This document shows, in pieces, positions 20,712-55,540 of a stretch of DNA of 64,000 bases. Below the pieces are notes generated by a model. The model saw nothing but the letters and a program-made list of their open reading frames with translations. It was not told the DNA's origin and ran no database searches. Source of the stretch: an uncultured Eubacteriales bacterium (GTDB lineage: Bacteria; Bacillota; Clostridia; Lachnospirales; Anaerotignaceae); the NCBI GenBank assembly GCA_900546215.1, contig URCD01000001.1, positions 15,540-79,539 of the forward strand. The letters are read 5' to 3'. Numbering within the stretch: the stretch's first letter is position 1; each line of letters begins with the position of its first letter. Both the position numbers and the translations under genes were made by a program.

Positions 20712-20752
20712 TAAAAATGGAAGGGCAGATTTATTGCCCTTCCATTTTTATA
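20712..20752. terminator. Terminator downstream of the ABC-2 permease operon (minus strand)
   Basis: atggaagggca-gatttat-tgcccttccat with A/T runs on both sides. Confidence 0.6.
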
Positions 20753-23089: not shown

Positions 23090-23937
23090 AATTCCTCATC
23101 CCTGTATACATAAAGGAAAACGTCCTCAAGACTTGGTATTGCCGGGCGACCGTTTGCCGGTGGCTCATCAGATACTATCCGAAGCATAGTCCCGCCTTCT
23201 CCCTGTATTTCGCTTAACATCAGCTGACCTGGCCTTATTCCCTGCGTCGACGGAACCTCAAATATCTTTCCGCTGAGTAAGGAGCATATGTTTAACGGGC
23301 TGTCGCAGCAGTAAAGCCTGTGGTCCTTAAGCATAATTATTTGCCCGGCTATAGTTTCAATGTCAGATACTATATGTGTAGAAAGTATAACTATCCTGTT
23401 GTCCGCAAGGGAGTGTATCAGGTTTCTGAAGCGTACTCGCTCCTTTGGGTCAAGACCGGCTGTAGGTTCGTCAAGGATTAGTATTTTCGGGTCGTTAAGC
23501 ATTGCCTGAGCTATGCCTACACGCTGTATCATTCCGCCGGAGAAACGCCCCATCTTTTTGTTTTTAAAACCGCTAAGGGAGACAAGCTCCAAAAGCATGT
23601 CTATCCGCTTGGCGGCCTCTTTCCTATTTAGTCCCTGAAGGGCGGCCATATATTTCAAGAACTGAACAGGAGTGTAGTTCTGATAATATCCAAACTCCTG
23701 AGGAAGGTATCCCAATAAGCCGCGGTATTTTTCGTCCAAGTTGATAATATCCTCGCCTTTCCACAAAATTGAGCCCTCTGTTGGGAAAATCAGTGTTGTA
23801 AGCATTTTTATAAGAGTGGTTTTTCCTGCCCCGTTAGGTGCAAGCAGGCCGTAAACGCCGTTTTTAAAGGACAGGCTGATATCCTCAAGGGCGGTAAAGG
23901 TTCCAAAGCGTTTTGTAACATGATTAACTGAAAGCAT
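23086..23937 (-). CDS. ABC transporter ATP-binding protein
   Basis: Walker A 'GPNGAGKTT', signature 'FSGGMIQR', Walker B 'LILDEPT'. Start 23937 (AAGGAGG 6 nt upstream) is preferred over 23979. Confidence 0.8.
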   Translation of the reverse strand: MLSVNHVTKRFGTFTALEDISLSFKNGVYGLLAPNGAGKTTLIKMLTTLIFPTEGSILWKGEDIINLDEKYRGLLGYLPQEFGYYQNYTPVQFLKYMAALQGLNRKEAAKRIDMLLELVSLSGFKNKKMGRFSGGMIQRVGIAQAMLNDPKILILDEPTAGLDPKERVRFRNLIHSLADNRIVILSTHIVSDIETIAGQIIMLKDHRLYCCDSPLNICSLLSGKIFEVPSTQGIRPGQLMLSEIQGEGGTMLRIVSDEPPANGRPAIPSLEDVFLYVYRDEEL

Positions 23938-24661
23938 TGACTGCCTCCTTTCTGTCAAATAAATAATGACGTACTTCAATAAGATATATGGACAGTGCCA
24001 GTACAGAGGTTAAATAAAACAAAAATACAGGGACTTTAAGAAGCAGTTCTCCAAATTTTTCACCTGAATTAAGCATTATTACTGATACTGTTGTCCAGAT
24101 GGCATACACACCCAATATATACCTTTTCTTTCCGGATATAAATGCCGCAAGAAGAACAGCGGCGAATATAAACAGTGATGAAAATGATACTCCCATAAGA
24201 CGGGGAAACGATACCGACTCTCCGCTCAGGACATAGAAAAGTGAAGTGACAGGCACACATACTATAATTGATATGCCCCCAAATAGAAGCATCCGCAGGG
24301 CTGTAAGCTGACGCAGAGTGTATCTGCAGGTCATCTTAAGCTCGTAAGTACCGCTCATTCGCTCTTTCCACTGTGTTAAAAAGTGGAGAAGCCCGTAAAG
24401 CGCGGGAGAAAATACGAATACAGCGGGGCACAGTGAGCCTTCTCCTCCTGAAGCCGAATAGGCAAACGGAATTATAAACAGCGCGAAGGCCAGAAAGGCC
24501 AGAAAAAGGCAGTCGCCAACCCCAAAAAACAGCGTTTGCATATCAACAGACTTAAAAAGCTTTGGAATACTGCTCCTTAGGGTCTTCGGCCTTGGCATTC
24601 CCTGGCTGATTATAAAATCAATGGATTTATTTTTTTCTTCTTCACTAATAATCATTGCCAA
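23924..24661 (-). CDS. Polytopic membrane protein immediately downstream of an ECF sigma (putative anti-sigma factor)
   Basis: 245 aa with about 6 TM segments. Start overlaps the sigma-gene stop. RBS gaaaggag. Confidence 0.5.
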   Translation of the reverse strand: MAMIISEEEKNKSIDFIISQGMPRPKTLRSSIPKLFKSVDMQTLFFGVGDCLFLAFLAFALFIIPFAYSASGGEGSLCPAVFVFSPALYGLLHFLTQWKERMSGTYELKMTCRYTLRQLTALRMLLFGGISIIVCVPVTSLFYVLSGESVSFPRLMGVSFSSLFIFAAVLLAAFISGKKRYILGVYAIWTTVSVIMLNSGEKFGELLLKVPVFLFYLTSVLALSIYLIEVRHYLFDRKEAVNAFS

Positions 24662-40668: not shown

Positions 40669-42006
40669 TCAGAGGCTGTAGTTTATATTCTTCCAAAGCT
40701 TTTTGGCTGTCTCAAGAATTTTAGAGTTTATCTCTTCCTCATCTATATCAATAAGCTGTCTGTTATGCATAAGTATTTTTCCGTTTGCAACAGTTGTAAG
40801 GCACTGCCTGCCGTTCATTCCGAATATCATGTGACCGTCAATGTTGTCGGCTGAAAAAGGAGTGTACGGCTTATAGTCCATAACTATAATGTCCGCCGCG
40901 GCTCCCGACTTTAAAACGCCAAGCGGTTCGTCAAAATATCTGGCGCATATTTTTGCGTTGTTCGTAAACAGCATTCCTGTAGCTTCAGCCCAGCCGACAT
41001 TAGGCATTTTTGCGTTATGTCGCTGGATTGCGAGCGCCGCCTTAAGGCTTTCAAGCATATCGTGGGTATAGGCGTCTGTACCAAGGCCGATAAGTATTCC
41101 CCTGTTGTAAAGATTAAGTACTGGAGAACAGCCAACGGCGTTGCCCATATTGGATTCAGGATTATTCACCACCATAGTGTCGCTTTCTCTGATTATGTTC
41201 ATTTCCCTGTCGTTTACATGTATACAGTGGCCAAGTATTGTTTTGGGGCCGAGTATATTCATGTCCCTAAGCCTTTCAACAGGACGTTTTCTGTGTTTTT
41301 CCCATGTATCCTGTACGTCGTTTATGCCCTCGGATACATGTATATGAAAGCCTGTCATACCGTTATTCGCCTCAACGCATTTTTCAAGCGTTCTATCCGA
41401 AAGGGTAAACAGCGCATGCAGTCCAAACATAGCCTTCAGCATGCAGTCTGGCTCGTCTGCCGTATGCTTTATAAAGTCGTAGTTTTCCTTAATGGCCTGA
41501 TTTGCTTTTACCTCGCCGTCCCTGTCGCTTACCTCATAGCAAAGACAGCTTCTTATGCCCATTTCCTTAGCAACGTCCGCAATTTCAAAAAGTGAGGATG
41601 GAATATATCCATAGCTTGCGTGATGGTCAAATATGGTGGTAACGCCATTTTTAATGCATTCTATGTAGGTTGCATATGCCGAGGCTCTGGTGCCCTCCAA
41701 ATCCAGCTTTCTGTCGATATTCCACCACATTCCCTCCAGTATTTCATAGAAATTTCTTGGGTTATAGCCGTTTATTGAAAGACCCCTTGCGAGGGCGCTG
41801 TATATATGAGTATGAGTGTTGATAAAGGCAGGCATTATTACGTTGCCCTCCGCGTCTATTATCTCTGCGTTGGGATATTTCAGCTTAAGGGTAAGGTCGT
41901 CGCCGACTTCCACAATTTTATTGCCCTCAACAGCAACTCCGCCGTCCTCGTAATATGGGTTATCACTGTCTCGGGTAATAACTTTTCCGTTTGTAATCAG
42001 ATACAT
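40669..42006 (-). CDS. ssnA: SsnA-like amidohydrolase (chlorohydrolase/aminohydrolase family associated with Se-dependent Mo hydroxylases)
   Basis: Amidohydrolase metal ligands 'INTHTHIY', 'HASYG' and 'GTDA'. Start 42006 (GGGAGGAA RBS) is preferred over the 26-codon N-terminal extension. Confidence 0.65.
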   Translation of the reverse strand: MYLITNGKVITRDSDNPYYEDGGVAVEGNKIVEVGDDLTLKLKYPNAEIIDAEGNVIMPAFINTHTHIYSALARGLSINGYNPRNFYEILEGMWWNIDRKLDLEGTRASAYATYIECIKNGVTTIFDHHASYGYIPSSLFEIADVAKEMGIRSCLCYEVSDRDGEVKANQAIKENYDFIKHTADEPDCMLKAMFGLHALFTLSDRTLEKCVEANNGMTGFHIHVSEGINDVQDTWEKHRKRPVERLRDMNILGPKTILGHCIHVNDREMNIIRESDTMVVNNPESNMGNAVGCSPVLNLYNRGILIGLGTDAYTHDMLESLKAALAIQRHNAKMPNVGWAEATGMLFTNNAKICARYFDEPLGVLKSGAAADIIVMDYKPYTPFSADNIDGHMIFGMNGRQCLTTVANGKILMHNRQLIDIDEEEINSKILETAKKLWKNINYSL

Positions 42007-42186
42007 ATATATTCCTCCCTCGCTTTTCATAAATTTTTTCAAATAGTCTAAATAAATTTTATTATACTTTGGACAGAAAAGCAATTAAAACATTGGCTGG
42101 AGCAGATACGCATTGTTTATTTTTATCGAAACATATATAATAGAACAAGCCGGACGTAGCGGTTAATAAAATATAGGAGGACTGGA

Positions 42187-42657
42187 ATGAAGCTGCTGTT
42201 TAAGCAAAGACTTTTTACATGGTTTGACAGTTACGATATTTATAATGAAAACGGAGACACACTTTACACCGTTGAGGGCCAGTTTAGCTGGGGACATTGC
42301 CTGCATATTCTGGACAGAAACGGCACGCACGTCGCAACGGTGCAGGAAAAGGTTTTTAGGCTGCTTCCGAAATTTGAGCTGTACATAGGAGATAACCTAA
42401 TCGGCTGCATTGAAAAGGAATTTACGTTTTTTAAACCATCATACAATATAGATTTTAATGGCTGGAGAGTAGAGGGCGAAATATTTGAATGGGATTATAA
42501 CATAATTAACCCTCAGGAGGAAATTGTGGCAGTAATAACCAAGGAGCTTTTCCGCTTTACTGATACATACGTTATTGAAGTAAAAAACAGCGGAGATGCT
42601 TTATATGCCCTTATGCTGACGCTTGCCATAGACGCGGAGAAATGCTCAAGGAATTAA
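42187..42657 (+). CDS. LURP-one-related / DUF567 (tubby-like fold) family protein
   Basis: 156 aa. The 'LFTWFDSYDIYNENGDTLYTVEGQ' pattern is typical of the YxjI/LURP1 family. RBS aggagg. Confidence 0.5.
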   Translation: MKLLFKQRLFTWFDSYDIYNENGDTLYTVEGQFSWGHCLHILDRNGTHVATVQEKVFRLLPKFELYIGDNLIGCIEKEFTFFKPSYNIDFNGWRVEGEIFEWDYNIINPQEEIVAVITKELFRFTDTYVIEVKNSGDALYALMLTLAIDAEKCSRN

Positions 42658-42693
42658 TCCGCTTTTATAGATTATTTTTTTGGAGGTACTGAT

Positions 42694-43725
42694 ATGATAA
42701 GATTTAACAACGACTACAGCGAGGTGGGACATGAGCGCATACTTAAAAAGCTCGCCGATATAAGCGGTACTCAGGTATGCGGCTATGGCGAGGATGAGTA
42801 TTGCAGGGAGGCTGCCGATATAATTAGGAACCTTATCGGAAAGGCCGATGCGGACGTACATTTTCTTGTCGGAGGCACACAGGCAAACCTTACGGTTATC
42901 TCGGCGGCTTTAAGACCCCACCAGTGCGCTCTATGTGCCCAAACGGGACATATAAACGTGCATGAGACAGGCGCGATAGAGGCAGTGGGACATAAATGCA
43001 TGGCAATTAAAACGAAGGACGGGAAGCTTACAGCGGAAATGGTGCGAAGGGTGCACAAAGACCATTGGGCAGACGGTTCGCATGAGCACATAGCGCAGCC
43101 GAAGCTTGTTTATATATCCAATTCAACTGAAATCGGAACAATATACAAAAAGGCTGAGCTGGAGGAGCTTTACAGGGCGTGCAGGGAATGCGGGCTTTAT
43201 CTGTTTATGGACGGCGCAAGGCTTGGCTACGCGCTGGCAAGCAGCGAAAATGATTTGGATTTAAAGACAATCGCCGACAACTGCGACGTTTTTTACATAG
43301 GAGGAACAAAGGGCGGAGCAATGTTCGGAGAGGCCGTTGTTATTATGAATGAGGCTTTAAAGGAAGATTTCAGGTATATAATTAAGCAGAAGGGCGGAAT
43401 GCTTGCAAAGGGCTGGCTTCTGGGCATCCAGTTCAGTGAGCTTTTAAGGGACGGCCTTTATTTTGAGCTGGCGCAGCATGCCGACAGGCTGGCTGATAAA
43501 ATTAAAGATGCCGTTAAAGAGGCCGGTTATCCGTTTTATTCTGAAAGTCCCACAAATCAGCAGTTTGTTATTTTCCCCGACAGCCTTATTGAGAAGCTCT
43601 CGGAGAAATATGTGCTTTCATATCAGGAGAGAATTGATGAAAGCCACAGCGCTGTCAGGATATGTACAAGCTGGGCGACAAAAGAGGAAAATGTGGATAT
43701 GCTGATTAAGGATATAATGGGTTGA
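42694..43725 (+). CDS. Low-specificity L-threonine aldolase (beta-eliminating lyase family, PLP-dependent)
   Basis: 343 aa. 'IRFNNDYSEVGHERIL', and 'GGTKGGAMFGEAVV' fits the PLP lysine region of threonine aldolases. RBS ggaggt. Confidence 0.7.
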   Translation: MIRFNNDYSEVGHERILKKLADISGTQVCGYGEDEYCREAADIIRNLIGKADADVHFLVGGTQANLTVISAALRPHQCALCAQTGHINVHETGAIEAVGHKCMAIKTKDGKLTAEMVRRVHKDHWADGSHEHIAQPKLVYISNSTEIGTIYKKAELEELYRACRECGLYLFMDGARLGYALASSENDLDLKTIADNCDVFYIGGTKGGAMFGEAVVIMNEALKEDFRYIIKQKGGMLAKGWLLGIQFSELLRDGLYFELAQHADRLADKIKDAVKEAGYPFYSESPTNQQFVIFPDSLIEKLSEKYVLSYQERIDESHSAVRICTSWATKEENVDMLIKDIMG

Positions 43726-43730
43726 GAAAA

Positions 43731-43768
43731 TTAAAAAAGGACTTGGAAAATTCCAAGTCCTTTTTGTA
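43731..43768. terminator. Bidirectional terminator
   Basis: aaaaggacttggaa-aat-ttccaagtccttttt. Confidence 0.7.
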
Positions 43769-43774
43769 TATGTA

Positions 43775-44110
43775 TTATTTTGCCTTAGCTACTTTAGCCA
43801 GTACGGTATGCTCTTCAAAATTAGTCTCAACGGCTTTTTTGATTACATCAACATCCATTTTTACATTTTCCATGTCTTCGGACAGAGTGTCCAGCTTACC
43901 CAGCTTTTCAGACATAGCGCTGTAACTCTCAACCAATAACTGTATATTCTTATTTATAACAGTCTCCTGCGTTGTTTCTATTTTAATAAGACGCTTATCC
44001 ATGGCATCCATTTTAGCGTTTAAATCGGCGTTCATGTTGTCCATTTTACTGTTAAGAACAGAAAACATTTCTTTTACGGCACTAATAACTTCGTTTGTTT
44101 CATCAGTCAT
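43775..44110 (-). CDS. Small coiled-coil protein of unknown function, translationally coupled to the XRE regulator
   Basis: 111 aa, heptad-rich with no TM. Start 44110 (AAGGGGGAT RBS) overlaps the XRE stop by 8 nt. Confidence 0.5.
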   Translation of the reverse strand: MTDETNEVISAVKEMFSVLNSKMDNMNADLNAKMDAMDKRLIKIETTQETVINKNIQLLVESYSAMSEKLGKLDTLSEDMENVKMDVDVIKKAVETNFEEHTVLAKVAKAK

Positions 44111-44456
44111 TTTTATCCCCCTTAAAACTTTCATATTCCTTTATTAAAGCAGTCATAGTGGATATTATAAATTCTTTCTCTTTTTGATTTAACTGGTTCA
44201 TTAAAAGAGACAATTCCTTTTCTTTATAAGGGTTATTATTTTCATCATTAAAAAATTCTGACGGAGTTATATCTAGGTACTCACAAATATAGAAAAAACC
44301 TGTCATTGATGGGAACCCACGACGATTTTCTATTTGATTAATATATGCTTCATTTTGTCCAAGATTTAAACTCATATCCCTTGCGGTAACGCCTTTTTTG
44401 ACCCTTAATTCCTGTAACCTTCTATAAAATAAATTTTCTATATCTGAAGAATGCAC
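44103..44456 (-). CDS. XRE-family helix-turn-helix transcriptional regulator
   Basis: 117 aa. HTH 'VTARDMSLNLGQNEAYINQIENRRGFPS'. GTG start with a GAGGAGG RBS. Confidence 0.75.
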   Translation of the reverse strand: MHSSDIENLFYRRLQELRVKKGVTARDMSLNLGQNEAYINQIENRRGFPSMTGFFYICEYLDITPSEFFNDENNNPYKEKELSLLMNQLNQKEKEFIISTMTALIKEYESFKGDKND

Positions 44457-44512
44457 CTAACTCACCTCCTCACAGATTATTATACTTATGTTGTATTTAA
44501 TTAATATGAGAT

Positions 44513-44608
44513 ACAATCCTATATTTATGTTGATATATGCTGGTAAAAATCATAAAATAGATATTGTATAGGATTGTGGCTTATTTTTAAGTGGCAATCT
44601 ATAGGATT
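44513..44608. promoter_or_regulatory. Operator-like repeats: an 11-bp perfect inverted repeat ACAATCCTATA / TATAGGATTGT plus a third TATAGGATT copy
   Basis: Copies at 44513-44523, 44567-44577 and 44600-44608, in the AT-rich divergent region between the XRE gene and the dehydratase operon. Confidence 0.5.
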
Positions 44609-44688
44609 AAAACTAATTTATTTAATTAGTTATGCGATTATATTAAATTTTTTCTCACTTTTATTGTTAAATAAAAAAGGGCGGTTTT

Positions 44689-44961
44689 ATGGCTGGAAAA
44701 ATTATCTGCCTCCGAAAAGACTGCATAGGTAATCTTTGTGATGAATGTCAGCTTTTGGAGTTCTTTGATATCGAAATAGGAAGAAATAAAAAATGCCAAT
44801 TCTATAAAAAAGACAAAAACTACAGAAAAATAAAACATATAGAAAGCCTGAAGCCTGCTGATGACAGGCCTTGGGACGAGATACTGGCCGATATAGACTG
44901 GGACAGCCTGACAGCTAGGATTTTTCATAGTATAGATGAAAAATTAAAAGGAAAAAAGTAA
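44689..44961 (+). CDS. Hypothetical small Cys-containing protein (CxxC...CxxC)
   Basis: 90 aa ORF with a weak RBS. 'CLRKDCIGNLCDEC'. Coding status is uncertain. Confidence 0.3.
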   Translation: MAGKIICLRKDCIGNLCDECQLLEFFDIEIGRNKKCQFYKKDKNYRKIKHIESLKPADDRPWDEILADIDWDSLTARIFHSIDEKLKGKK

Positions 44962-45063
44962 AATTGGGCGGCGGCATAAACATTGACTTCTTTAACCATT
45001 GTGTTACTATTAAATGTAATCTGCTTTTAAATAAATCAGTAAATGGATATAAAGGAGACTGCA

Positions 45064-46335
45064 ATGCCAGACATTATAACAAAATTTGGACAGCATATTA
45101 ATAAAGAAATTGTAAAGAACCCTGATATGGCAAGAAAAGAGCTTCTTTTAGGCTATAGAACATTTAACCTCAAAATGAGATACGCTCCTGACAAACGGCT
45201 TTCACCTGCCAGAAAATATCTGGGCAAGGTGTGCATGGACGAGCATATAAAGTCCTTTGCGCATGCTGATAACTCGGCATTGGTAAGTGTGTTTCTTCCA
45301 TGTGAAATAATACACGCCTTTGGCCTTAACACAATATTTGCCGAGGGCTTTGCCGGATATATGACGGGAGCCTACGCTGAAAAGGCCTTTGTTGAGGCCG
45401 CGGAGGCTGAAGGAATAGCCGAAACCTACTGCTCCTACCATAAAATTCTGATGGGCGCGGCATTTACCCAGGTACTGCCGAAGCCTAAGTTTATTATAAA
45501 TACGTCAATTGTATGCGACGCGAATAATCTTACATTCAGGGCCCTGGCCGACTATTATGGTGTTCCGCAGTTTTACGTTGACGTACCGACAGCGGCAGAC
45601 GAGGAAAGCGTTAAATATGTCGCAGAGCAGCTTAAAGAGATGACAGCCTTTATTGAACGACAGACGGGTAAAAAGCTCGACGAATCCGTCCTTAAAGCGT
45701 CCGTAGCAAGGACAAGGGACTCTATAAACAACTTTAAAGAATGTCTTGAGCTTAAAAAGAACACATATTTAGCCAACGATATTACAAGCGAGATGTATGA
45801 GGTTTTTGCAACGCACCCGCTTTTTGGAACAGAGGAAACCCTTAAATATTCGCAGATGCTTGTTGAGGATTTAAAAAATGCGGAGCCTAAAAGGGGAATA
45901 AGGCTGCTGTGGATGCATACGATACCTTATTTTCAGGAGCCGCTCAGGGACAGGCTTAATTTCAATGAAAAGTGCCAGATTATAAGCTGCGACATGAACT
46001 TTGAAAACCTTGTTGAGACAGACCCCGAAAAGCCCTACGAGAGCATGGCGCGGCGTATTGTTATGAGCAGCTTTAACGGTTCTGCAGAAAACAGGATAAA
46101 TAAGGCCGCAGAGATAGCTGAAAGCCTTGGCGCCGACGGCGTAATTTATTTTTGCCATTGGGGCTGCAAGCAGACGATGGGCGCGGCGGTAAACGCGAAG
46201 AAAAAGCTGGAGGAAAGGGGTTTCCCAACGCTTGTGTTAAACGGCGACGGAGGGGACAGAAGAAATACCAGCGACGGGCAGATACTTACAAGGCTTGACG
46301 CTTTTATAGAAATGCTGGAGGATATGAAAAAATGA
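45064..46335 (+). CDS. 2-Hydroxyacyl-CoA dehydratase family protein (HgdA/HadB/FldB-like component D subunit)
   Basis: 'CSYHKI', 'VCDANN' and 'GVIYFCHWGCKQT' are the HGD-D family cysteine-ligand motifs. Start at the internal Met after the AAAGGAGA RBS. Coordinates are uncertain by +/-1 nt: my reading of the sequence text places the RBS-adjacent ATG one base later than the ORF track implies. Confidence 0.65.
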   Translation: MPDIITKFGQHINKEIVKNPDMARKELLLGYRTFNLKMRYAPDKRLSPARKYLGKVCMDEHIKSFAHADNSALVSVFLPCEIIHAFGLNTIFAEGFAGYMTGAYAEKAFVEAAEAEGIAETYCSYHKILMGAAFTQVLPKPKFIINTSIVCDANNLTFRALADYYGVPQFYVDVPTAADEESVKYVAEQLKEMTAFIERQTGKKLDESVLKASVARTRDSINNFKECLELKKNTYLANDITSEMYEVFATHPLFGTEETLKYSQMLVEDLKNAEPKRGIRLLWMHTIPYFQEPLRDRLNFNEKCQIISCDMNFENLVETDPEKPYESMARRIVMSSFNGSAENRINKAAEIAESLGADGVIYFCHWGCKQTMGAAVNAKKKLEERGFPTLVLNGDGGDRRNTSDGQILTRLDAFIEMLEDMKK

Positions 46336-47981
46336 TGTATTATGTTTGCAAATATACTCCCCTGGAGCTCATGGAAGGGCTTGGCGCGCAGATGATGAGG
46401 CTGGAGCCCCTGCCAAGTAATTTTGACATCGCAGAAAGTCTCGGTCATCCCAATATGTGCGGCTACGGCAAGGCTGTTATTGAGGAAATATACGCCAAGG
46501 ATATTAAGGAAATTCTGCTGGTGGACTGCTGCGACGTTATCCGCAGGGTTTATGATATACTTGTGGAAAGCGGCCGTATGGACTTTGTCTATCTGCTTGA
46601 GCTTCCACATAAAACCGGGTTGGCTGAAACAGAGCTGTTTAAAATGAATTTGAGAAAGCTGGCAAAGGCCTACAGTGCCTACAGCGGGAATTCTTTCGAT
46701 GTAAAGCGCGCAATGTCAGCCTTTACCGAAACAAAGAAAAATCCTGATGAAAAGCATATAAGCATACTTGGCGCACATGGAGGAAAGTACCTTTATAAGA
46801 CTATAAGCGGTAAATTTTCAATGCCGGTGCATGACGATACATGTACGGGAAACAGGTCAATTGACGTACCGGGAACGCCTGAGAATATAGATGAATTTAT
46901 AGACGGATATGCTCCGGGACTGCTTAGGCAGACGCCCTGCATGCGTATGTATGATAACAGCACAAGGGGAGAAACGGCAAAGGGCGCCGCGGGAATAATA
47001 TATCATACAATGAAGTTCTGTGATTATTACAGCTTTGAATACATGGGCATTAAAAATAAGACGGGTGTTCCGCTCCTGAAAATAGAGACTGACTGTACCA
47101 GCCAGAGCGAAGGCCAGCTTTCAACTCGATTGGAGGCCTTTGCGGAAACTATAGATACAGGCGTGAAACGGAGGAGACCAGACATGAAGACAGACGGAAA
47201 AATATATACTGCGGGAATTGACAGCGGCTCCACAAGTACCGACGCGGTTATAATGGACAGGGATAAAAACATAATTGGAAAGGCGATTGTACCGACTGGT
47301 GCGGGCGCCACAAACGGCGCTAAAAAGGCTTTGGCAGCGGCGCTTGAGGAAGCGGGAATAAATGAGGACAGCCTTACGCTAACTGTAACAACAGGCTACG
47401 GAAGGGAAAACATAAGCTTTGGGAATTCGTCCGTGACAGAAATAACTTGCCATGCCAAGGGAGCGCATTACCTTGACCCTTTGGCAAGAACGGTAATAGA
47501 CATTGGGGGTCAGGACTCAAAGGCAATAAGAATTGATGAAAACGGCTCTGTTCTTAGCTTTGTAATGAATGATAAATGCGCAGCTGGAACCGGACGGTTC
47601 CTTGATATGATGGCGAGGACAATGGAACTTACGCTGGATGAAATGGGAGAGCTTGGACTGCATTGGAAAAACGATGTTGTTATTTCAAATATGTGTACGG
47701 TTTTTGCAGAGTCTGAGGTTGTCTCACTTGTGGCTCAGGATACGCCTCCGGCTGATATTATTCACGGGCTTAATAATTCGGTCGCGGGAAAAACAGTATC
47801 TCTGGTAAAGAGACTTGGCGGCGAAAAAGGGTATATAATGACCGGCGGAGTGGCTAAAAATAAGGGAATTGTTGAGGCGCTTGAAGAAAAACTTGGTGAG
47901 AAGGTATTTATATCAGAAAATGCCCAGCTTTGCGGGGCAATAGGCGCGGCGCTTATCGGAATGGAATCATTGACTGAATAG
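46332..47981 (+). CDS. Fusion protein: 2-hydroxyacyl-CoA dehydratase small-subunit-like domain (N-terminal) + BadF/BadG/BcrA/BcrD-type ATPase activase (HgdC-like, C-terminal)
   Basis: N-terminal ~280 aa has HGD-D-like Cys clusters ('MCGYGK', 'VDCCDV'). The C-terminal domain has 'IYTAGIDSGSTSTDAVIMD' (ASKHA phosphate-1 motif) and 'DIGGQDSKAI', typical of dehydratase activators. ATGATG overlap with the upstream gene. Confidence 0.65.
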   Translation: MMYYVCKYTPLELMEGLGAQMMRLEPLPSNFDIAESLGHPNMCGYGKAVIEEIYAKDIKEILLVDCCDVIRRVYDILVESGRMDFVYLLELPHKTGLAETELFKMNLRKLAKAYSAYSGNSFDVKRAMSAFTETKKNPDEKHISILGAHGGKYLYKTISGKFSMPVHDDTCTGNRSIDVPGTPENIDEFIDGYAPGLLRQTPCMRMYDNSTRGETAKGAAGIIYHTMKFCDYYSFEYMGIKNKTGVPLLKIETDCTSQSEGQLSTRLEAFAETIDTGVKRRRPDMKTDGKIYTAGIDSGSTSTDAVIMDRDKNIIGKAIVPTGAGATNGAKKALAAALEEAGINEDSLTLTVTTGYGRENISFGNSSVTEITCHAKGAHYLDPLARTVIDIGGQDSKAIRIDENGSVLSFVMNDKCAAGTGRFLDMMARTMELTLDEMGELGLHWKNDVVISNMCTVFAESEVVSLVAQDTPPADIIHGLNNSVAGKTVSLVKRLGGEKGYIMTGGVAKNKGIVEALEEKLGEKVFISENAQLCGAIGAALIGMESLTE

Positions 47982-47990
47982 GGTGGTTAT

Positions 47991-48557
47991 ATGGGAAATT
48001 ACGACGACTATAAAAGGGGACGGGATTTAGCTTGGGAGACGCTGATTAACAGCGGCGTTTCTTCGCTGCCCGTTGAACTTGACCGGGTTGCCGTCTGCTG
48101 CGGGGTTAGCGTGATTTCCTTTGAGAGGGCTGTTAAGGCTGGATATATTTATGAGGACGAGGCTGTGGGCAGAATGTTTGCCAAAACCATAGACGGTATA
48201 AAAACAGTTTTTGTGAATAACACCTTGGAGAACAAGGGGAGCATCCGCTTCTTAATCGCTAAGGGCATTGGCTGCTGCCTTTTGGCTAAAAATCCTTCAT
48301 ATATAACGGAAAGAACAGCTTATGAGGCCGGAATTTTTGCAAGAGACCTGCTTATGCCGGCAACGGTGCTGTTTGGACTTGGAGTGAAGGACGCTGCCGA
48401 CATCGCAAGAATATGTCATGTGTCTCAGAGAGCAGCGCAAATAAGGGCGGAAAGAATGGCGCAGCTGTACGAAAGAAACCGTTTCAATGGACACCCTTTG
48501 GAGAAACAGGTCAGAGCCCAGTTTGACATATTTATAAATGAAAATAAACTGAATTAA
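47991..48557 (+). CDS. ImmA/IrrE-like (COG2856) protein with a degenerate metalloprotease motif
   Basis: 188 aa. 'RFLIAKGIGCCLL' aligns with the ImmA 'RFTLAHELGHLLL' (HEXXH replaced by K-G-x-x-C). The C-terminus, 'ICHVSQRAAQIRAERM', is ImmA-like. It starts 10 nt after the fusion gene. Confidence 0.45.
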   Translation: MGNYDDYKRGRDLAWETLINSGVSSLPVELDRVAVCCGVSVISFERAVKAGYIYEDEAVGRMFAKTIDGIKTVFVNNTLENKGSIRFLIAKGIGCCLLAKNPSYITERTAYEAGIFARDLLMPATVLFGLGVKDAADIARICHVSQRAAQIRAERMAQLYERNRFNGHPLEKQVRAQFDIFINENKLN

Positions 48558-48590
48558 AAAGGACAGCCAATAATCGGCTGTCCTTTTAAT
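48555..48590. terminator. Bidirectional terminator
   Basis: aaaaaggacagcc-aataat-cggctgtcctttt. Confidence 0.65.
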
Positions 48591-49129
48591 TAGTCTTCGC
48601 CCAGGGAAGGAAGCTCCTCCATTTGGTTATCCTTTGGACTTCCGCCCACATAGGTTATTTTACTTCTGTCAAGGTCATTTATTTCGCAGTACATCTTACA
48701 GGTGACATCATTTCCTGATATATAGATAATATTCATGCCCTTCTTTAGCTGAACGGTATCATTTGACCAAATTGCGTCATAGGCTTCATCTGTTGCGGGA
48801 GAAAGCTTAAAGACCGTTTTGCTGTCTTCGTCCTCAGCGTAATATCCTAGCTCAACACCATCCTCGTCGTTTGTGCTGTAGGTATATTTAAGCGTAATGT
48901 CGGTATCCTCAGCCGCTTCAATGTAAAAGATATTTCCTTCATTTTCAGAAAGATAGACCTCAAACTCCGCTGTAACGGGGTCGCCTGCATCAATGGTAAG
49001 CTCCCTGAACACTGTGGTTTCATAGTCAATCAGCTTCCTGTCCTTATAAGAGGACTCATCTGTCCTGACGCATGCTGACAGGCCAAGCGCTGTTATACAG
49101 CACGTTAAAATAATTGCTGCCCGTTTCAT
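48590..49129 (-). CDS. Secreted lipoprotein of unknown function
   Basis: Signal peptide with lipobox 'LGLSAC', and an acidic mature domain. Confidence 0.55.
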   Translation of the reverse strand: MKRAAIILTCCITALGLSACVRTDESSYKDRKLIDYETTVFRELTIDAGDPVTAEFEVYLSENEGNIFYIEAAEDTDITLKYTYSTNDEDGVELGYYAEDEDSKTVFKLSPATDEAYDAIWSNDTVQLKKGMNIIYISGNDVTCKMYCEINDLDRSKITYVGGSPKDNQMEELPSLGED

Positions 49130-49209
49130 TTAATCCCTCCCAATATTCTGTTTTCCTTAGTATACATGGTGTTTTTAAAGAAACGAAGCTTTTTTTCTTA
49201 AATTTTTCC

Positions 49210-49246
49210 AAATAAACAGGCACAGCGGATAAATGCTGTGCCTATA
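49210..49246 (-). terminator. Terminator for the aminotransferase/ECF operon (minus strand)
   Basis: aggcacagc-ggataaat-gctgtgcct, with an A-rich plus-strand left side. Confidence 0.55.
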
Positions 49247-49249
49247 GCT

Positions 49250-50395
49250 TTAATAAATAACGTTTTTATTTATCTCATCCATAAATACTTCGTACATACT
49301 GGCCTTTAAAGGATACTCAAGCTTGGCAAAGGTTTTGTCAAGAGCCTGGAAGGTTTCGGCCATATCTCTAATATTGGCATTTTCTCCCATGTGGCCTATT
49401 CTGAATACCTTTCCGGAAAGCATATCAAAGCTTCCTGCAAGAAGTATATTGTAATCATCCCTCATTGTATCAAGTATCTGATCGTCCGTAAGCATTTCAG
49501 GCACGTTGACTACCGTTACCGTATCGGAGTAGCCGCAGTCAGGATAAAGAGTAAGGCCGGCGGCCTTTACAGCCTTTCTGGAAGCTTCAGCTATAACAGA
49601 GTGCCTTTCAAAGACAGTCTTATCAAAGTACACATTTTTGACGGCCTTATTAAGCCCTATAATGTCGCTGATGGGCATTGTATAGGGAAACCATTTCTGT
49701 GTGTAATAATCCTTAAAGGTAAGTATGTTGCAGTAAAAAGAGGCGATAGGCGTTTTTCTGTCAACCATTGCCTTTAAGGCATCGCCGCTTACGGAAAGCA
49801 TAGTAAGCCCCGGAGGTGCGGAAAGCGCCTTTTGTGAGCCCATACAGCAAATATCTATCTGCGCCTCATCCACATTTAAAGGTACTCCGAAGGACGACGA
49901 AACAGCGTCCACAACAGTGAGAATTCCGTATTCCTTAAGTATAGGACATATGGCGGCAACGTCATTTAATATGCCGCTTGGCGTGTCGCAGTGAACAAGG
50001 GTAGCGTATTTGAAATTGCTGTCACCCTCAAGATAATTTCTAAGCTCCGCCGGGTCAATGGGCTTATGATAATCCTTGGTATAATAAACGGGCTTACCCC
50101 CGTATATTTTGACAAAGTCTCCAAATCCCTTGCCGTATACACCGTTATCGATTATAAGCACTCTGTCGCCCTGGTCGGTAAGTGAGGCGCAGGACGCCTC
50201 AAGTCCGAGTATGCCCTCACCGGAAAGTATATATATATTTCCGGAAGAATTAATTATTTTTCCAATCATATCGCAGGTTGTTTTATAATATTCGGCAAAA
50301 TCCTTGTCAATATCTGGATTAGTTGTTATAAGGCTCCTTGCGGCCCTTACGTTATCCCTAACCTGGGTAGGTCCCGGTGTCATTATTTTGTACAT
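49250..50395 (-). CDS. Class V PLP-dependent aminotransferase (alanine-glyoxylate / serine-pyruvate aminotransferase-like)
   Basis: 'MTPGPTQV' N-terminus, typical of AGT-family class V. Start 50395 (AAGGAG RBS) is preferred. Confidence 0.7.
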   Translation of the reverse strand: MYKIMTPGPTQVRDNVRAARSLITTNPDIDKDFAEYYKTTCDMIGKIINSSGNIYILSGEGILGLEASCASLTDQGDRVLIIDNGVYGKGFGDFVKIYGGKPVYYTKDYHKPIDPAELRNYLEGDSNFKYATLVHCDTPSGILNDVAAICPILKEYGILTVVDAVSSSFGVPLNVDEAQIDICCMGSQKALSAPPGLTMLSVSGDALKAMVDRKTPIASFYCNILTFKDYYTQKWFPYTMPISDIIGLNKAVKNVYFDKTVFERHSVIAEASRKAVKAAGLTLYPDCGYSDTVTVVNVPEMLTDDQILDTMRDDYNILLAGSFDMLSGKVFRIGHMGENANIRDMAETFQALDKTFAKLEYPLKASMYEVFMDEINKNVIY

Positions 50396-50942: not shown

Positions 50943-50971
50943 TTCCTCCTTATTGACTGTAAATAGTATGT
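50943..50971 (+). promoter_or_regulatory. Consensus sigma-A promoter (TTGACT-17-TATAAT) for the MocR-type regulator
   Basis: ttgact at 50943-50948, a 17-nt spacer, tataat at 50966-50971. Confidence 0.55.
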
Positions 50972-51047
50972 GACATATAATACTATTAAACTGATTGTAT
51001 TAAAACTGCCAGTTTATAAAAATATTATGGTATCAGATGGAGGGCCT

Positions 51048-52448
51048 ATGATAAATTTATCCAACAGAAATGAAGGACAACCCTTGTATTTCCAAATATA
51101 TACTCAGCTAAAAGAAGAAATACAAAACGGAAGACTTAAGGCTGGAGATAAGCTTTTTTCAAAAAGAAAAATGGCGGAAAGCCTGAATGTAAGCGTAAAT
51201 ACCATAGAGACCGCTTACAGCCAGCTCCTAAGCGAGGGCTTTATAGAGGCGCGAGTAAAAAGCGGCTATTATGTATGTGACATTGATGAGTTTATTTTTA
51301 CGAATATAAAGCCGGTGCCCAGGTCTTTAGATGGTGTTAAGGAAAAATCTATAGATATAAAATATAATTTTGCTACAGACGGAGTAGATTACGAAAATTT
51401 TCCCTATAATACATGGCGCAGACTTATGAAAAGCTGCTTTAATGAATACAATCCGTTTATATTGAGAGGCGCTCCTCCGGAGGGGGACTATGAACTGAGA
51501 AAGGCTGTAGCATCGCATATATACAGTTCCAGGGGCGTAAGCTGCCGGACAGAGCAGGTGATAATAGGCGCCGGGGTAGACAATCTTCTAAATACCATCA
51601 GCGGCATTTTGGGCAACGGATGCAAAATAGCAATGGAGGAACCGGTATATTTCGAAGCATACTCATTCTTTAAGGCATTAGGGCACAGTCTTTGCTCAAT
51701 TCAGGTTGATGACGGGGGAATCCGTACTGATTTGCTTCCTGAGGATGACAATACGGCTGTATATGTTACACCGTCACACCAATTTCCTTTAGGAATAACC
51801 ATGCCCGCTGGACGAAGGGTAAAGCTTTTGAACTGGGCCTATGCCAAGGAAAATCGGTATATAATCGAGGACGATTACGACAGCGAATTCAGATATAATT
51901 CCAAACCGATACCGTCTGTACAAAGCATAGACGTAAAGGGAAGGGTTATTTATTTGGGTACATTTTCAAAGACAATAGCTCCCTCAATTCGTATAAGCTA
52001 TATGGTTCTGCCGGAGAAGCTTTTGGAGTTTTATAATGAAAGATATACCAAATTTTCCTCTGCCGTGTCTGTTCTCGAGCAAAATATACTTACGGCTTTT
52101 ATAAGTGAGGGCCACTATGAAAGGCATTTGAACCGAATGAGGAAACTATATGGAGAGAAAAGGGCTGTTTTGCTGAACGAGCTGAAAAAAATCGGAGGAA
52201 AAATAAAAATAAACGGGGAAAATGCGGGACACCATATGGCAATCAGGCTGATGTCTGATTTAAGCGAGGAGGAAATGATTGAATCTGCCAAAAAGTGCGG
52301 CGTCAGGGTCTATCCGATTTCCACTTATTTTATCAGGAGCGTGCCGCAAAAATACAGAAGCACAGTGCTTATAGGATATGCTGAGCTTTCAAAAAAGCAG
52401 ATTACAGAAGGCATTTCATTATTAAAAAAAGCATGGGGATTAAATTAA
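51048..52448 (+). CDS. MocR/GabR-family regulator (GntR HTH fused to a class-I aminotransferase-like domain)
   Basis: N-terminal GntR HTH 'LYFQIYTQLKEEIQNGRLKAGDKLFSKRKMAESLNVSVNTIETAY', then an aminotransferase-fold domain. ATG 51048 (RBS ggaggg) is preferred over the upstream-extended ORF. Confidence 0.75.
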   Translation: MINLSNRNEGQPLYFQIYTQLKEEIQNGRLKAGDKLFSKRKMAESLNVSVNTIETAYSQLLSEGFIEARVKSGYYVCDIDEFIFTNIKPVPRSLDGVKEKSIDIKYNFATDGVDYENFPYNTWRRLMKSCFNEYNPFILRGAPPEGDYELRKAVASHIYSSRGVSCRTEQVIIGAGVDNLLNTISGILGNGCKIAMEEPVYFEAYSFFKALGHSLCSIQVDDGGIRTDLLPEDDNTAVYVTPSHQFPLGITMPAGRRVKLLNWAYAKENRYIIEDDYDSEFRYNSKPIPSVQSIDVKGRVIYLGTFSKTIAPSIRISYMVLPEKLLEFYNERYTKFSSAVSVLEQNILTAFISEGHYERHLNRMRKLYGEKRAVLLNELKKIGGKIKINGENAGHHMAIRLMSDLSEEEMIESAKKCGVRVYPISTYFIRSVPQKYRSTVLIGYAELSKKQITEGISLLKKAWGLN

Positions 52449-54340: not shown

Positions 54341-54382
54341 CCACGATAGAATATTAATATCTGCTTTGGGCGACCAAAGCTC

Positions 54383-54612
54383 TGATAGAGGCGCAGAAAA
54401 AATCAGTATTGCGGAACAATGGCGGGCGGCCGTTCTGCTTGAAAGGGTTTTCTGCCGAAGCTTGTTTGTTCTGCCCGGGACAAGCTGGCTGGGACGATGC
54501 ATAACATGCAGCGTACTGTCACTTATGTGGAGAGCTATCATAAAACCTTATGATTTGTTTTATCAGTGCCGAATCTTCACTTGAGCAGAGGAATATTCGG
54601 CACTTTTTATTT
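54383..54612 (+). promoter_or_regulatory. Lysine riboswitch (L-box) aptamer plus intrinsic terminator expression platform
   Basis: L-box consensus blocks are present in order: GATAGAGGCGC, AGTATTGC, GAAAGGG, GCCGAAG, ACTGTCA, TGGAGAGCTATC. They are followed by the terminator gtgccgaat...attcggcac plus a T-run (54563-54612), 30 nt before the transporter start. Confidence 0.75.
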
Positions 54613-54646
54613 GTATTAAAATTTTACATTAAAGGAAGGTATGAAC

Positions 54647-55540
54647 ATGAAGAAAAAGTTATTTTCAGTAGCAGCATTAGCGATGGCTTGTACAGTCGCA
54701 TTGGCAGGCTGCTCATCAAAATCAAACGAAACATCAAATGAAGACTCAGGAAAACAGCAGACAGCGGCTGACGGTGAAGGCGCGGCAGCAGACAACGTAC
54801 TCACAGTAGCAATGGAATGCGGATACGCTCCATATAACTGGACACAGCCGACAGACCAGAACGGAGCAGTTCAGATTAAGGACAGCCCCGACTATGCTTA
54901 CGGATATGACGTAATGATGGCAAAGCATATTGCTGAGGAGCTTGGCATGGAGCTTGAAATCGTTAAGCTTGACTGGGATTCACTTGTACCAGCAGTTCAG
55001 TCGGGAACAGTAGACTGTGTTATCGCAGGACAGTCAATCACATCTGAAAGACTTGAAATGGTAGACTTTACAGAGCCTTACTACTATGCTTCAATCGTTA
55101 CGCTTACAAAGGCAGACAGCCCCTACGCAGACGCTGCAAGTGTAGCTGACCTTGCCGGCGCAACATGTACTTCACAGCAGAACACAATATGGTATAACGT
55201 TTGCCTCCCTCAGATTCCCGATGCAAACATTCTTCCTGCACAGGAATCAGCTCCGGCTATGCTTGTTGCGCTTGACGCAGGCAAATGCGACATCGTTGTA
55301 ACAGACCAGCCTACAGGGCTTGCGGCTACAGTAGCATATCCTGACTTCAAGCTTCTTGACTTTACAGGCACAGAGGGCGAATTTGAAGTATCAGATGAAG
55401 AAATCAATATCGGTATCTCTCTTCAGAAGGGCAATACAGAGCTTCTTGACAAAATCAACGGCGTACTTTCCACTATGACACCTGATGACTATGTTCAGCT
55501 GATGAACGAGGCTATATCTGTTCAGCCCCTCAGCGAGTAA
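54647..55540 (+). CDS. Amino-acid ABC transporter substrate-binding lipoprotein (probably lysine-specific, given the riboswitch)
   Basis: Lipobox 'LAGCSS' and a family-3 SBP fold pattern. Start 54647 (aaggaagg, 7-nt spacer). Confidence 0.75.
   Translation: MKKKLFSVAALAMACTVALAGCSSKSNETSNEDSGKQQTAADGEGAAADNVLTVAMECGYAPYNWTQPTDQNGAVQIKDSPDYAYGYDVMMAKHIAEELGMELEIVKLDWDSLVPAVQSGTVDCVIAGQSITSERLEMVDFTEPYYYASIVTLTKADSPYADAASVADLAGATCTSQQNTIWYNVCLPQIPDANILPAQESAPAMLVALDAGKCDIVVTDQPTGLAATVAYPDFKLLDFTGTEGEFEVSDEEINIGISLQKGNTELLDKINGVLSTMTPDDYVQLMNEAISVQPLSE

Follow-up and report, generated by a model that had tools for sequence, protein, structure and literature searches.

Layout of the locus

The stretch of DNA analyzed here, a 64-kb window of contig URCD01000001.1 from an uncultured Eubacteriales bacterium (assembly GCA_900546215.1), carries a plus-strand operon in which two genes for iron-sulfur (Fe-S) enzyme subunits of the HGD-D family are followed by a gene for a 188-residue ImmA/IrrE-like protein that lacks the HExxH motif of its relatives and that we refer to as pseudo-ImmA. 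Upstream of the operon lie a Cys-rich open reading frame (ORF) on the same strand and, divergent from it, the genes for an XRE-family helix-turn-helix (HTH) regulator and a small coiled-coil protein (Table 1). All positions are given in window numbering, and L-numbers denote the homologous loci used for comparison; these were gathered by an exact-protein look-up, a one-genome-per-species scan and a metagenome scan, and all window proteins were then mapped onto them. An ORF check found all six genes where a preliminary description of this DNA had placed them, and Pfam and NCBIfam searches bore out every one of its domain calls. The translational coupling that it had proposed for the XRE and coiled-coil genes is seen as an 8-nt overlap between the TGA of the former and the ATG of the latter (ATGACTGA).

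Two genes have alternative starts. For the coiled-coil gene, the start at 44110 is preferred over 44134 and has a Shine-Dalgarno sequence (AGGGGGA) upstream. For the HGD-D subunit, the start at 45064 is likelier, with AAAGGAG as the Shine-Dalgarno sequence and with orthologs that are 423 aa long and begin M(S/A/P)DIITKFGQ; the 430-aa reading adds seven residues that are absent in other species. The pseudo-ImmA gene starts 9 nt past the TAG of the fusion gene and is preceded by GGTGG. On the left, the unit is bounded by a terminator (43734-43765) that is matched in the sister strain L051.

Table 1. Genes and sequence elements at the pseudo-ImmA locus, in forward-strand order
Feature	Position	Strand	Description
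Hairpin terminator	43734-43765		Between the upstream Beta_elim_lyase gene and the coiled-coil gene; 14-bp stem and T-run; left edge of the unit
Coiled-coil gene	43775-44110	-	111 aa; alternative opening at 44134 gives 119 aa
XRE-family HTH regulator	44103-44456	-	117 aa; mobile-element type
Strain-variable regulator cassette	44111-44678		XRE gene and AT-rich divergent promoter/operator region; 568 nt, 26.6% GC
Operator-like repeats	44513-44610		TATAGGATTGT at 44513-44523 (-) and 44567-44577 (+); degenerate copy at 44600-44610 (+)
Cys-rich ORF	44689-44961	+	90 aa; C7, C12, C17xxC20, C36
Probable sigma-70-type promoter of the enzyme operon	44983-45010	+	TTGACT-16-TACTAT, TG upstream; from promoter scan
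HGD-D family subunit	45064-46335	+	423 aa; ORF also opens at 45043 (430 aa)
HGD-D/activase fusion gene	46332-47981	+	549 aa; overlaps the preceding gene by 4 nt
Pseudo-ImmA	47991-48557	+	188 aa; HExxH replaced by K91-G-I-G-C95
Intrinsic terminator ending the operon	48557-48587	+	12-bp stem with 6 GC pairs, then T-run

An ImmA-family protein without its catalytic motif

Taken alone, the 188-aa protein matches Peptidase_M78 with E = 0.014 and 15.6 bits, under the gathering score of 22, and a single-sequence search of the Protein Data Bank (PDB) gave no match; it is labeled "hypothetical" by the Prokaryotic Genome Annotation Pipeline, and in PADLOC-DB 2.0 it matches capP only (E = 0.0074). A homology search nevertheless returned 39 relatives, the distant ones of which are 36-41% identical over the full length (E ~1e-26 to 1e-33) and carry PF06114, one of them being named ImmA/IrrE of a siphovirus in its source record. 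All 18 of the 18 clade members match PF06114 (best E = 1.3e-6), and a family profile run against the PDB finds CapP (3e-8) and also IrrE/PprI. An AlphaFold2 (AF2) model with a predicted local distance difference test score (pLDDT) of 94.7 was obtained; the protein is a single alpha/beta domain with terminal helices and no HTH_3 or GAF match, and CapP is its best structural match. The ImmA homology put forward in the preliminary description is thus real, and the ImmA fold, the lack of which would by that description's own criterion have refuted it, is recovered.

Three features of the intact relatives are lost. Alignment to the H-E-L-G-H of intact relatives confirms the earlier reading of K-G-I-G-C at the HExxH position; a loop of 10-12 residues that follows the motif is deleted; and the Glu of the ExxA(N/D)xFA segment, which by analogy with IrrE would be the third metal ligand, is Ala in pseudo-ImmA. 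Within the clade this last position varies (A/D/S/E/T/N), and it is Glu in nearly all of the HExxH-intact relatives shown. Because all of the motif residues are lost, no protease activity is predicted, and we strongly infer that proteolysis has been lost.

An invariant FARDLLMPA segment and the C-terminal RAERM...FNxHPLE helices are common to pseudo-ImmA and the active phage ImmAs, and within the replacement motif A90, G92, I93 and G94 are invariant among proteins that are only 50-60% identical. Near-invariance of this kind suggests that the former active site has come under a new constraint and has not merely decayed.

A conserved three-gene unit distinct from phage ImmA modules

The conserved unit at this locus comprises three genes: the 423-aa HGD-D subunit, the 549-aa fusion and the dead ImmA. 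Complete trios are found in L001, L003, L004, L015, L016, L018, L019, L021 and L022 and again in L054, L055, L058, L059, L064 and L066, and seven more contigs end inside the fusion gene; the organisms are Anaerotignum sp. MSJ-24, Candidatus (Ca.) Metalachnospira spp. and uncultured Clostridiales and Lachnospiraceae, and the window itself is assigned to Ca. Metalachnospira sp. Genes flanking the trio are syntenic across genera, and in most loci pseudo-ImmA follows the fusion gene at a distance of 9-28 nt. With the exception of one lineage, every ImmA gene whose motif is degenerate comes immediately after an HgdA-like and a fusion gene, and these HGD-linked copies read KGIGx, MGIGx, CQIGH or IQLGH at the motif. 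The exception is the UMGS1098 lineage (L020, 8202-8750; L060-L062, 6001-6531), in which several independent assemblies show a KGIG pseudo-ImmA without adjacent enzyme genes; there it adjoins a gene for a DHH-DRTGG-CBS-DHHA2 pyrophosphatase, and the downstream Aminotran_5/ECF-S/MocR neighbors are kept.

ImmA genes with an intact HExxH have a different setting: in none of 62 loci (0/62) was an HgdA or fusion gene found near one. Those that were inspected are lysogeny modules, in which a Cro-like HTH gene is divergent from an XRE repressor of ~150-170 aa that is followed by ImmA and, past it, by one small ORF or two, a serine recombinase or tyrosine integrase, and phage genes. Among the intact relatives located in genomes, 12 of 13 have an XRE gene of 147-230 aa directly upstream; the gene directly upstream of pseudo-ImmA is the fusion, not an XRE repressor. 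The XRE proteins paired with active ImmAs (L023-L035; for example, L029, 9366-9884) share a C-terminal (V/A)AARG(F/N), which is a candidate recognition or cleavage site.

Probable stepwise loss of the active site, and maintenance by selection

The HGD-linked ImmAs are monophyletic in a neighbor-joining tree without support values. Branching first, as sisters to the KGIG group, are the xQxxH forms of L021 (IACQIGH) and L022 (MAIQLGH), carried by Anaerotignum sp. MSJ-24 and by one Metalachnospira; in these proteins the first His is lost and Gln stands in place of the catalytic Glu; the second His is still present, and the loop is retained wholly or for the most part. All other HGD-linked copies, including those of L063-66 and L089, combine (K/M)GIGx with the loop deletion.

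The pseudo-ImmA ORF is intact in all of the ~20 divergent loci, at 42-60% amino acid identity, and the ratio of nonsynonymous to synonymous divergence (dN/dS, or omega) is 0.078 for the window and L013 (dS 0.49), 0.113 for L003 and L015, and 0.15-0.26 for other pairs. Because the gene is intact everywhere and omega is low, we conclude that selection maintains it. Compared in the same pairs of genomes, the two enzyme genes have an omega of 0.03-0.075, and the dN of pseudo-ImmA is 2.3-4.4 times theirs. The GC content of pseudo-ImmA (46.4%) matches that of the enzyme genes, and the operon as a whole, at 45-46%, has the composition of its neighbors.

Judged from these comparisons of sequence, the operon is chromosomal and vertically inherited in a clade of Anaerotignum/Metalachnospira-type gut Clostridia, and pseudo-ImmA is very probably a domesticated ImmA anti-repressor protease of the prophages of related Clostridia. 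In the scenario to which we extend the same confidence, a single capture would have placed the third gene behind the enzyme genes; the earliest losses would have been those of the catalytic Glu and the first His, as in the xQxxH forms, followed by those of the remaining metal ligands and the loop, as in the KGIG form; and the gene would since then have been kept intact under purifying selection.

The enzyme pair

The HGD-D subunit matches PF06050 at 1.8e-68 in Pfam and has five invariant Cys residues (87, 130, 158, 371 and 375 in the numbering of the 430-aa reading). Its orthologs form a tight group of 72-84% identity that coincides with the clade carrying the dead ImmA; beyond this group there are hundreds of HgdA-like homologs at ~50-57% identity, in Oscillibacter, Anaerovoracaceae, Eubacterium and Lachnospiraceae. 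The best PDB matches are BzdO (9e-17), DCCP (the double-cubane cluster protein; 4e-12) and, over a partial stretch, HadB (1e-9), and in NCBIfam the subunit falls far under the equivalog cut-offs for HadB, BzdO and DCCP. Both proteins of the pair are distant from every characterized member, and all of their equivalog scores are well short of the cut-offs; the HadB model gives 78.9 bits (cut-off 750) and the HadC model 16-28 bits (cut-off 700).

The fusion protein consists of a short HGD-D-type domain (residues ~1-285; PF06050, 8.9e-35) and an ATP-dependent electron-transfer activase, or "archerase" (~291-545; BcrAD_BadFG PF01869, 9.5e-65; TIGR00241, 1.6e-77), and its PDB matches are MbdQ, HadI and HgdC at 1e-64 to 1e-69. 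Invariant Cys residues are found in the N-terminal domain at 6, 43, 66/67, 171, 203 and 230, the last four of which align to Cys residues of DCCP, and the activase domain has conserved Cys residues at 416 and 455.

The same two-gene pair (422-425 aa followed by a fusion of 547-557 aa) occurs amid unrelated neighbors in all three of the distant loci examined, on contigs of Oscillibacter, Anaerovoracaceae and other Clostridia type, where neither an ImmA gene nor a CoA-transferase gene is present. More generally, no genes for a CoA-transferase or a 2-hydroxyacid pathway are adjacent to the pair in the window, in ~15 clade loci or in the three distant loci; a gene of the lactate/malate dehydrogenase (LDH/MDH) family lies 8 kb upstream of the operon, with unrelated genes between. 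The absence of a CoA-transferase gene from the locus, reported in the preliminary description, is upheld and extends throughout the loci examined of the enzyme family; it is a property of the whole subfamily. The label that the pair had been given, 2-hydroxyacyl-CoA dehydratase, stands as far as the two HGD-D subunits and the BcrAD_BadFG activase are concerned; beyond that it is not borne out, as there is no equivalog-level similarity to a characterized dehydratase subunit and the loci examined have no pathway genes. It is best read as the name of a family. The two genes are predicted to encode an orphan ATP-dependent Fe-S radical enzyme, the stand-alone cassette for which is widespread in Clostridia.

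HgdAB/HgdC, HadBC/HadI, FldBC/FldI and the class I benzoyl-CoA reductases likewise combine two HGD-D-family subunits with a BcrAD_BadFG activase; the window differs from them in that its catalytic subunits are only remotely similar, the activase is fused, and the loci examined have no CoA-transferase or pathway genes. Closer in design are the class III DCCP candidates, in which the enzyme and its reductase form one polypeptide of ~550 aa, the seventh of the cluster-ligating Cys residues is missing and six are present, and of which Firmicutes have many (PMC7317905; Jeoung, Martins and Dobbek, ChemBioChem 2020); the comparison set also includes DCCP of C. hydrogenoformans and YjiM/YjiL of E. coli. 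Like these candidates, the 549-aa fusion joins an HGD-D domain to a reductase, has six invariant Cys residues in the same order and has no CoA-transferase gene in its neighborhood; unlike them, it is always preceded by a separate 423-aa HGD-D subunit, and its Cys spacing is shorter. By these features the pair would be closer to a class III double-cubane protein-reductase fusion than to a genuine 2-hydroxyacyl-CoA dehydratase.

The operon promoter and the upstream island

Of nine loci compared, each from a different species, seven (L001, L003, L004, L015, L018 and L019 among them) have a TTGACT box 55-85 nt ahead of the HgdA-like start, and because of this conservation the enzyme operon is considered to have, as is probable, its own native promoter. 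In the window, the box at 44983 lies downstream of the small Cys-rich ORF and ~400 nt from the operator-like repeats. Transcription may read through from the small ORF into the enzyme genes, since no predicted terminator separates them. By its spacing, pseudo-ImmA would be co-transcribed with the enzyme genes. An Rfam scan gave no riboswitch or other leader upstream of the operon, its sole match being a lysine riboswitch elsewhere in the window.

The genes that lie ahead of this promoter are of another kind. The XRE protein matches HTH_19 (1.5e-6), an RstR-like family (4e-7) and phrog_2967 (6e-11), and in PADLOC it gives generic HTH matches only, among them a weak one to capH (0.0022). Its homologs, at 40-54% identity, are found in faecal phage contigs and in an integrase-bearing uncultivated virus genome (UViG), and tblastn against the mapped loci found none at those of other species. 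It lacks the C-terminal AARG motif that the repressors paired with the nearest active ImmAs possess, and none of the window ORFs was found to encode an ImmR-type repressor with that tail.

The coiled-coil protein has only weak coiled-coil-type matches in Pfam and NCBIfam, no family assignment in any library and no phage or viral homolog in INPHARED or IMG/VR; its gene is found only in contigs of Ca. Metalachnospira sp., with no tblastn match at the loci of other species. Its length varies by strain, from 111 aa in the window to 133 aa in L051 (2441-2842, minus strand), where the extra block of 22 aa consists of ~11-aa repeats (NADLNAKMDAM-like), that is, a polymorphism in repeat number. The 90-aa Cys-rich ORF is annotated as a gene in L041-L044 and L051; it has no Pfam, NCBIfam, PADLOC or PHROG match and no tblastn homolog at the loci of other species.

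Between the XRE gene and the small ORF are 232 nt of AT-rich sequence. The 11-mer TATAGGATTGT occurs there in the only two exact copies to be found in the 64 kb on both strands, inverted and 43 nt apart, with a third copy nearby that has 2 mismatches, and the repeats flank or overlap promoter-like hexamers identified in the promoter scan at 44530-44558 (+) and 44590-44563 (-). Copies with up to 2 mismatches are not enriched across the window (23 found, 24.5 expected), so that only the two exact inverted copies are regarded as meaningful.

Within the species the regulator gene is polymorphic. Over 42000-44110 and 44679-49500, the window is matched by L051, L052 and L041 at 98.5-98.8% identity, and homology to L051 and L041 breaks exactly at 44110 and resumes at 44679. 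In L051 the intervening cassette is replaced by 846 nt with a gene for a ribbon-helix-helix (RHH)-like protein of 61-65 aa, and the sister strains with this cassette keep the same pseudo-ImmA. Two other species (L016 and L018) have homologs of the RHH-like gene ahead of their enzyme operon, and this gene is therefore probably the older occupant of the regulator slot. L001 has the same flanking genes (LOR, Beta_elim_lyase) and only ~110 nt ahead of the enzyme operon, and in the window the 44-45 kb segment has a GC content of 30.8%. The XRE/RHH slot, the coiled-coil gene and the small ORF are a species-specific island of ~1.25 kb that is inserted between the terminator of the upstream gene and the operon's own promoter, and the stretch that immediately precedes the operon seems to be a hot spot for insertions. 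Between the RHH-like gene and the enzyme operon of L018 (Ca. Metalachnospira gallinarum), two ORFs are present at 503-2216, one HNH-endonuclease-like (226 aa) and one MobC-like (162 aa).

Because the slot is exchangeable, with XRE in this strain and an RHH-like gene in sister strains, the XRE protein is judged not to be an ImmR-type partner of the dead ImmA; most simply, it would control itself and the small ORF.

What pseudo-ImmA may do

Our preferred explanation, to which as a whole we assign a probability of roughly 0.55, is that pseudo-ImmA is a domesticated protein of a Fe-S enzyme operon, that the XRE regulator nearby is unrelated to it, and that it preferably acts as a decoy. Unable to cut, pseudo-ImmA would act by binding through the ImmA scaffold that it has retained, and would serve, without cleaving, as a decoy or trap whose target is either the ImmR-type repressors carried by related prophages or the signal by which their ImmA is activated; expressed steadily as part of a housekeeping operon, it would then dampen the induction of prophages. 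This phage-directed mechanism, which taken by itself is tentative and stands at clearly less than even odds, is ranked first among the possible roles for five reasons: the motifs retained are those common to active phage ImmAs, the exchange of Glu for Gln is the earliest change seen in the series, the dN of pseudo-ImmA is above that of the enzyme genes, most Clostridia run the enzyme pair without an ImmA-like gene, and in the UMGS1098 lineage pseudo-ImmA persists without adjacent enzyme genes. In zinc proteases, a Glu-to-Gln exchange usually abolishes catalysis and spares substrate binding.

Several points weigh against this explanation. A role connected with the enzyme would account no less well for the spacing of 9-28 nt in most loci and for the almost unbroken linkage with the enzyme genes, and in the solo lineage these genes may be present at another place in the genome. 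That KGIG is so strongly conserved speaks for a new site of ligand binding or contact and not for the old substrate groove simply having been kept. The tree by which the HGD-linked copies are monophyletic carries no support values. Finally, the class III DCCP fit of the enzyme pair rests on the order of the Cys residues and on a description of one paragraph in a review; the Cys spacing in the fusion is X103, as against X166-170, and the NCBIfam double_cubane score is 69 for a cut-off of 350.

The explanation ranked second, which we regard as rather unlikely, makes pseudo-ImmA an accessory or regulatory partner of the Fe-S enzyme that might bind the enzyme complex, its substrate or an acyl-CoA-like metabolite in the cavity from which zinc has been lost, and so modulate activity, assembly or stability. 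One option of the preliminary description, an uncharacterized module with pseudo-ImmA as sensor or adaptor, may still hold. The linkage to the HgdA-like and fusion genes, together with the place at the 3' end of the operon and the short spacing, is what such a partner would show, and the nearly invariant A-K-G-I-G is consistent with a new constraint at the former active site. A precedent is PrpR of M. tuberculosis, in which a non-catalytic IrrE-like domain and a GAF-like domain form a CoA-binding cavity (PMC6765138). Like pseudo-ImmA, PrpR has an IrrE-like fold without HExxH and is linked to acyl-CoA metabolism, and in the literature searched it is the sole documented case of such a fold working by binding. 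PrpR/RamB, however, combines an XRE HTH with the non-catalytic IrrE-like and GAF-like domains and binds CoA and a [4Fe-4S] cluster; PrpR is a DNA-binding transcription factor of 486 aa, whereas pseudo-ImmA stands alone at 188 aa with neither an HTH nor a GAF-like domain, so that the half of the PrpR CoA pocket formed by the GAF-like domain is missing, and at 16% identity the two have no sequence-level relationship beyond the fold. The observations that put the decoy mechanism first also count against an accessory role: the two-gene cassette without an ImmA-like gene in most Clostridia, the solo pseudo-ImmA of the UMGS1098 lineage, the motifs held in common with active phage ImmAs, and the evolution of pseudo-ImmA at 2-4 times the rate of the enzyme subunits.

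A third explanation, that the XRE protein and pseudo-ImmA are a split pair of the ImmR/ImmA or CapH/CapP type that gates the dehydratase operon, with the dead protease as sensor or adaptor, is improbable, and as a conserved system it is largely refuted by the sequence comparisons. The preliminary description had proposed such a regulator pair, split around the dehydratase genes. CapH/CapP and ImmR/ImmA do show that an operon can be under the control of an adjacent pair of an XRE and an M78 protein; the closest structural match of pseudo-ImmA is CapP, the XRE protein has its weak match to capH, the XRE gene is divergent from the plus-strand genes across an inverted pair of exact 11-mers that overlap promoter-like sites, and read-through from the small ORF might carry such control into the enzyme genes. 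Against these stand the RHH-like cassette, which takes the place of the XRE gene and the operators in sister strains whose flanks are 98.5% identical and whose pseudo-ImmA is the same, the lack of an XRE homolog at the locus of any other species, and the operon's own conserved promoter ~400 nt downstream of the operators; the XRE protein itself is short (117 aa) and without the AARG motif, and its relatives are generic mobile-element regulators.

Least probable of all is that the 188-aa gene is a neutral prophage remnant or that the region is mobile-element cargo or a defense or toxin island: the nearest active relatives of the protein are prophage ImmAs (phrog_1914 subgroup), the insertion hot spot adjoins the operon and the 44-45 kb segment is AT-rich, but the neutral remnant is rejected on the omega values (0.08-0.26) and the integrity of the ORF in ~20 divergent loci, and the cargo of a decayed mobile element, as the preliminary description had suggested, is not supported, given the native GC content of the operon, the flanks that are syntenic across genera and the lack of an integrase or tRNA among the window ORFs examined. 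No integrase, recombinase, tRNA or att evidence was found among the window ORFs examined, and the neighbors of the operon are ordinary metabolic and transport genes. The defense or toxin role that had also been raised is not borne out, as the enzyme genes, like the small ORF and a lipoprotein gene, have no PADLOC-DB 2.0 match.

Relation to known ImmA-type proteins

Proteases of the ImmA/IrrE/CapP family are a standard switch for the induction of prophages, integrative and conjugative elements (ICEs) and CBASS (cyclic oligonucleotide-based antiphage signaling systems). With the ImmA of the prophage and ICE ImmA/ImmR modules (Peptidase_M78/COG2856) pseudo-ImmA shares full-length homology, size and fold; it differs from it in lacking HExxH, the loop and the downstream Glu, and in having neither a preceding XRE gene of ~150 aa nor a following integrase, being instead the last gene of a Fe-S enzyme operon. 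CapP (with CapH, in CBASS) and IrrE/PprI (with DdrO, in Deinococcus) are active zinc proteases of 240-300 aa that have an additional GAF-like C-terminal domain and pair with a conserved XRE repressor, unlike pseudo-ImmA with its 188 aa, no metal motif and no conserved XRE partner.

A search of the literature for inactive ImmA/COG2856 proteins returned only unrelated pseudoproteases, and the M78 family is absent from a 2024 review of pseudo-metallopeptidases. A long-conserved, inactive, stand-alone member of the ImmA/IrrE/CapP family, here an inactive M78 protein in a new genomic role, has no description in the literature searched. The full course of events, in which a prophage anti-repressor protease was domesticated, lost catalysis and became fixed in a Fe-S operon, there to work as a decoy or as a PrpR-like subunit that binds a ligand or the enzyme, is a speculative proposal to which we give clearly less than even odds. 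The decoy would control prophage induction, and the PrpR-like subunit would couple a metabolite signal to an orphan radical enzyme of the double-cubane type. If it held, with either role an inactive M78 protein that stands alone would for the first time have been given a function, and there would be a way into an enzyme family of which gut Firmicutes have many members and for which no physiological substrate is known.

Apart from its role, the natural series from the active phage form through xQxxH to KGIG should be useful for studying the change from a protease to a binding protein. As a clade-specific accessory gene beside an abundant, uncharacterized Fe-S enzyme pair of gut Clostridia, pseudo-ImmA may also help to find the role of the enzyme. 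It should be noted, for annotation, that an XRE gene near an ImmA-like gene does not make a functional pair; here their proximity does not reflect one, because comparison at the strain level shows them to be unrelated.

Other features of the window

Downstream of the operon, the window encodes a MocR-type regulator of 492 aa (50970-52448; GntR HTH and aminotransferase domain), which in L051 (10038-11459) is called as two pieces of 278 and 141 aa and may be disrupted. The lysine riboswitch (RF00168, 94 bits) is located at 54378-54545 (+), upstream of a solute-binding-protein gene (54641-55540) that is SBP_bac_3 in the homologous locus. On the minus strand at 20748-23979, two overlapping long ORFs of 430 and 381 aa without a Pfam match lie upstream of an ABC ATPase gene and may be unannotated permease components.

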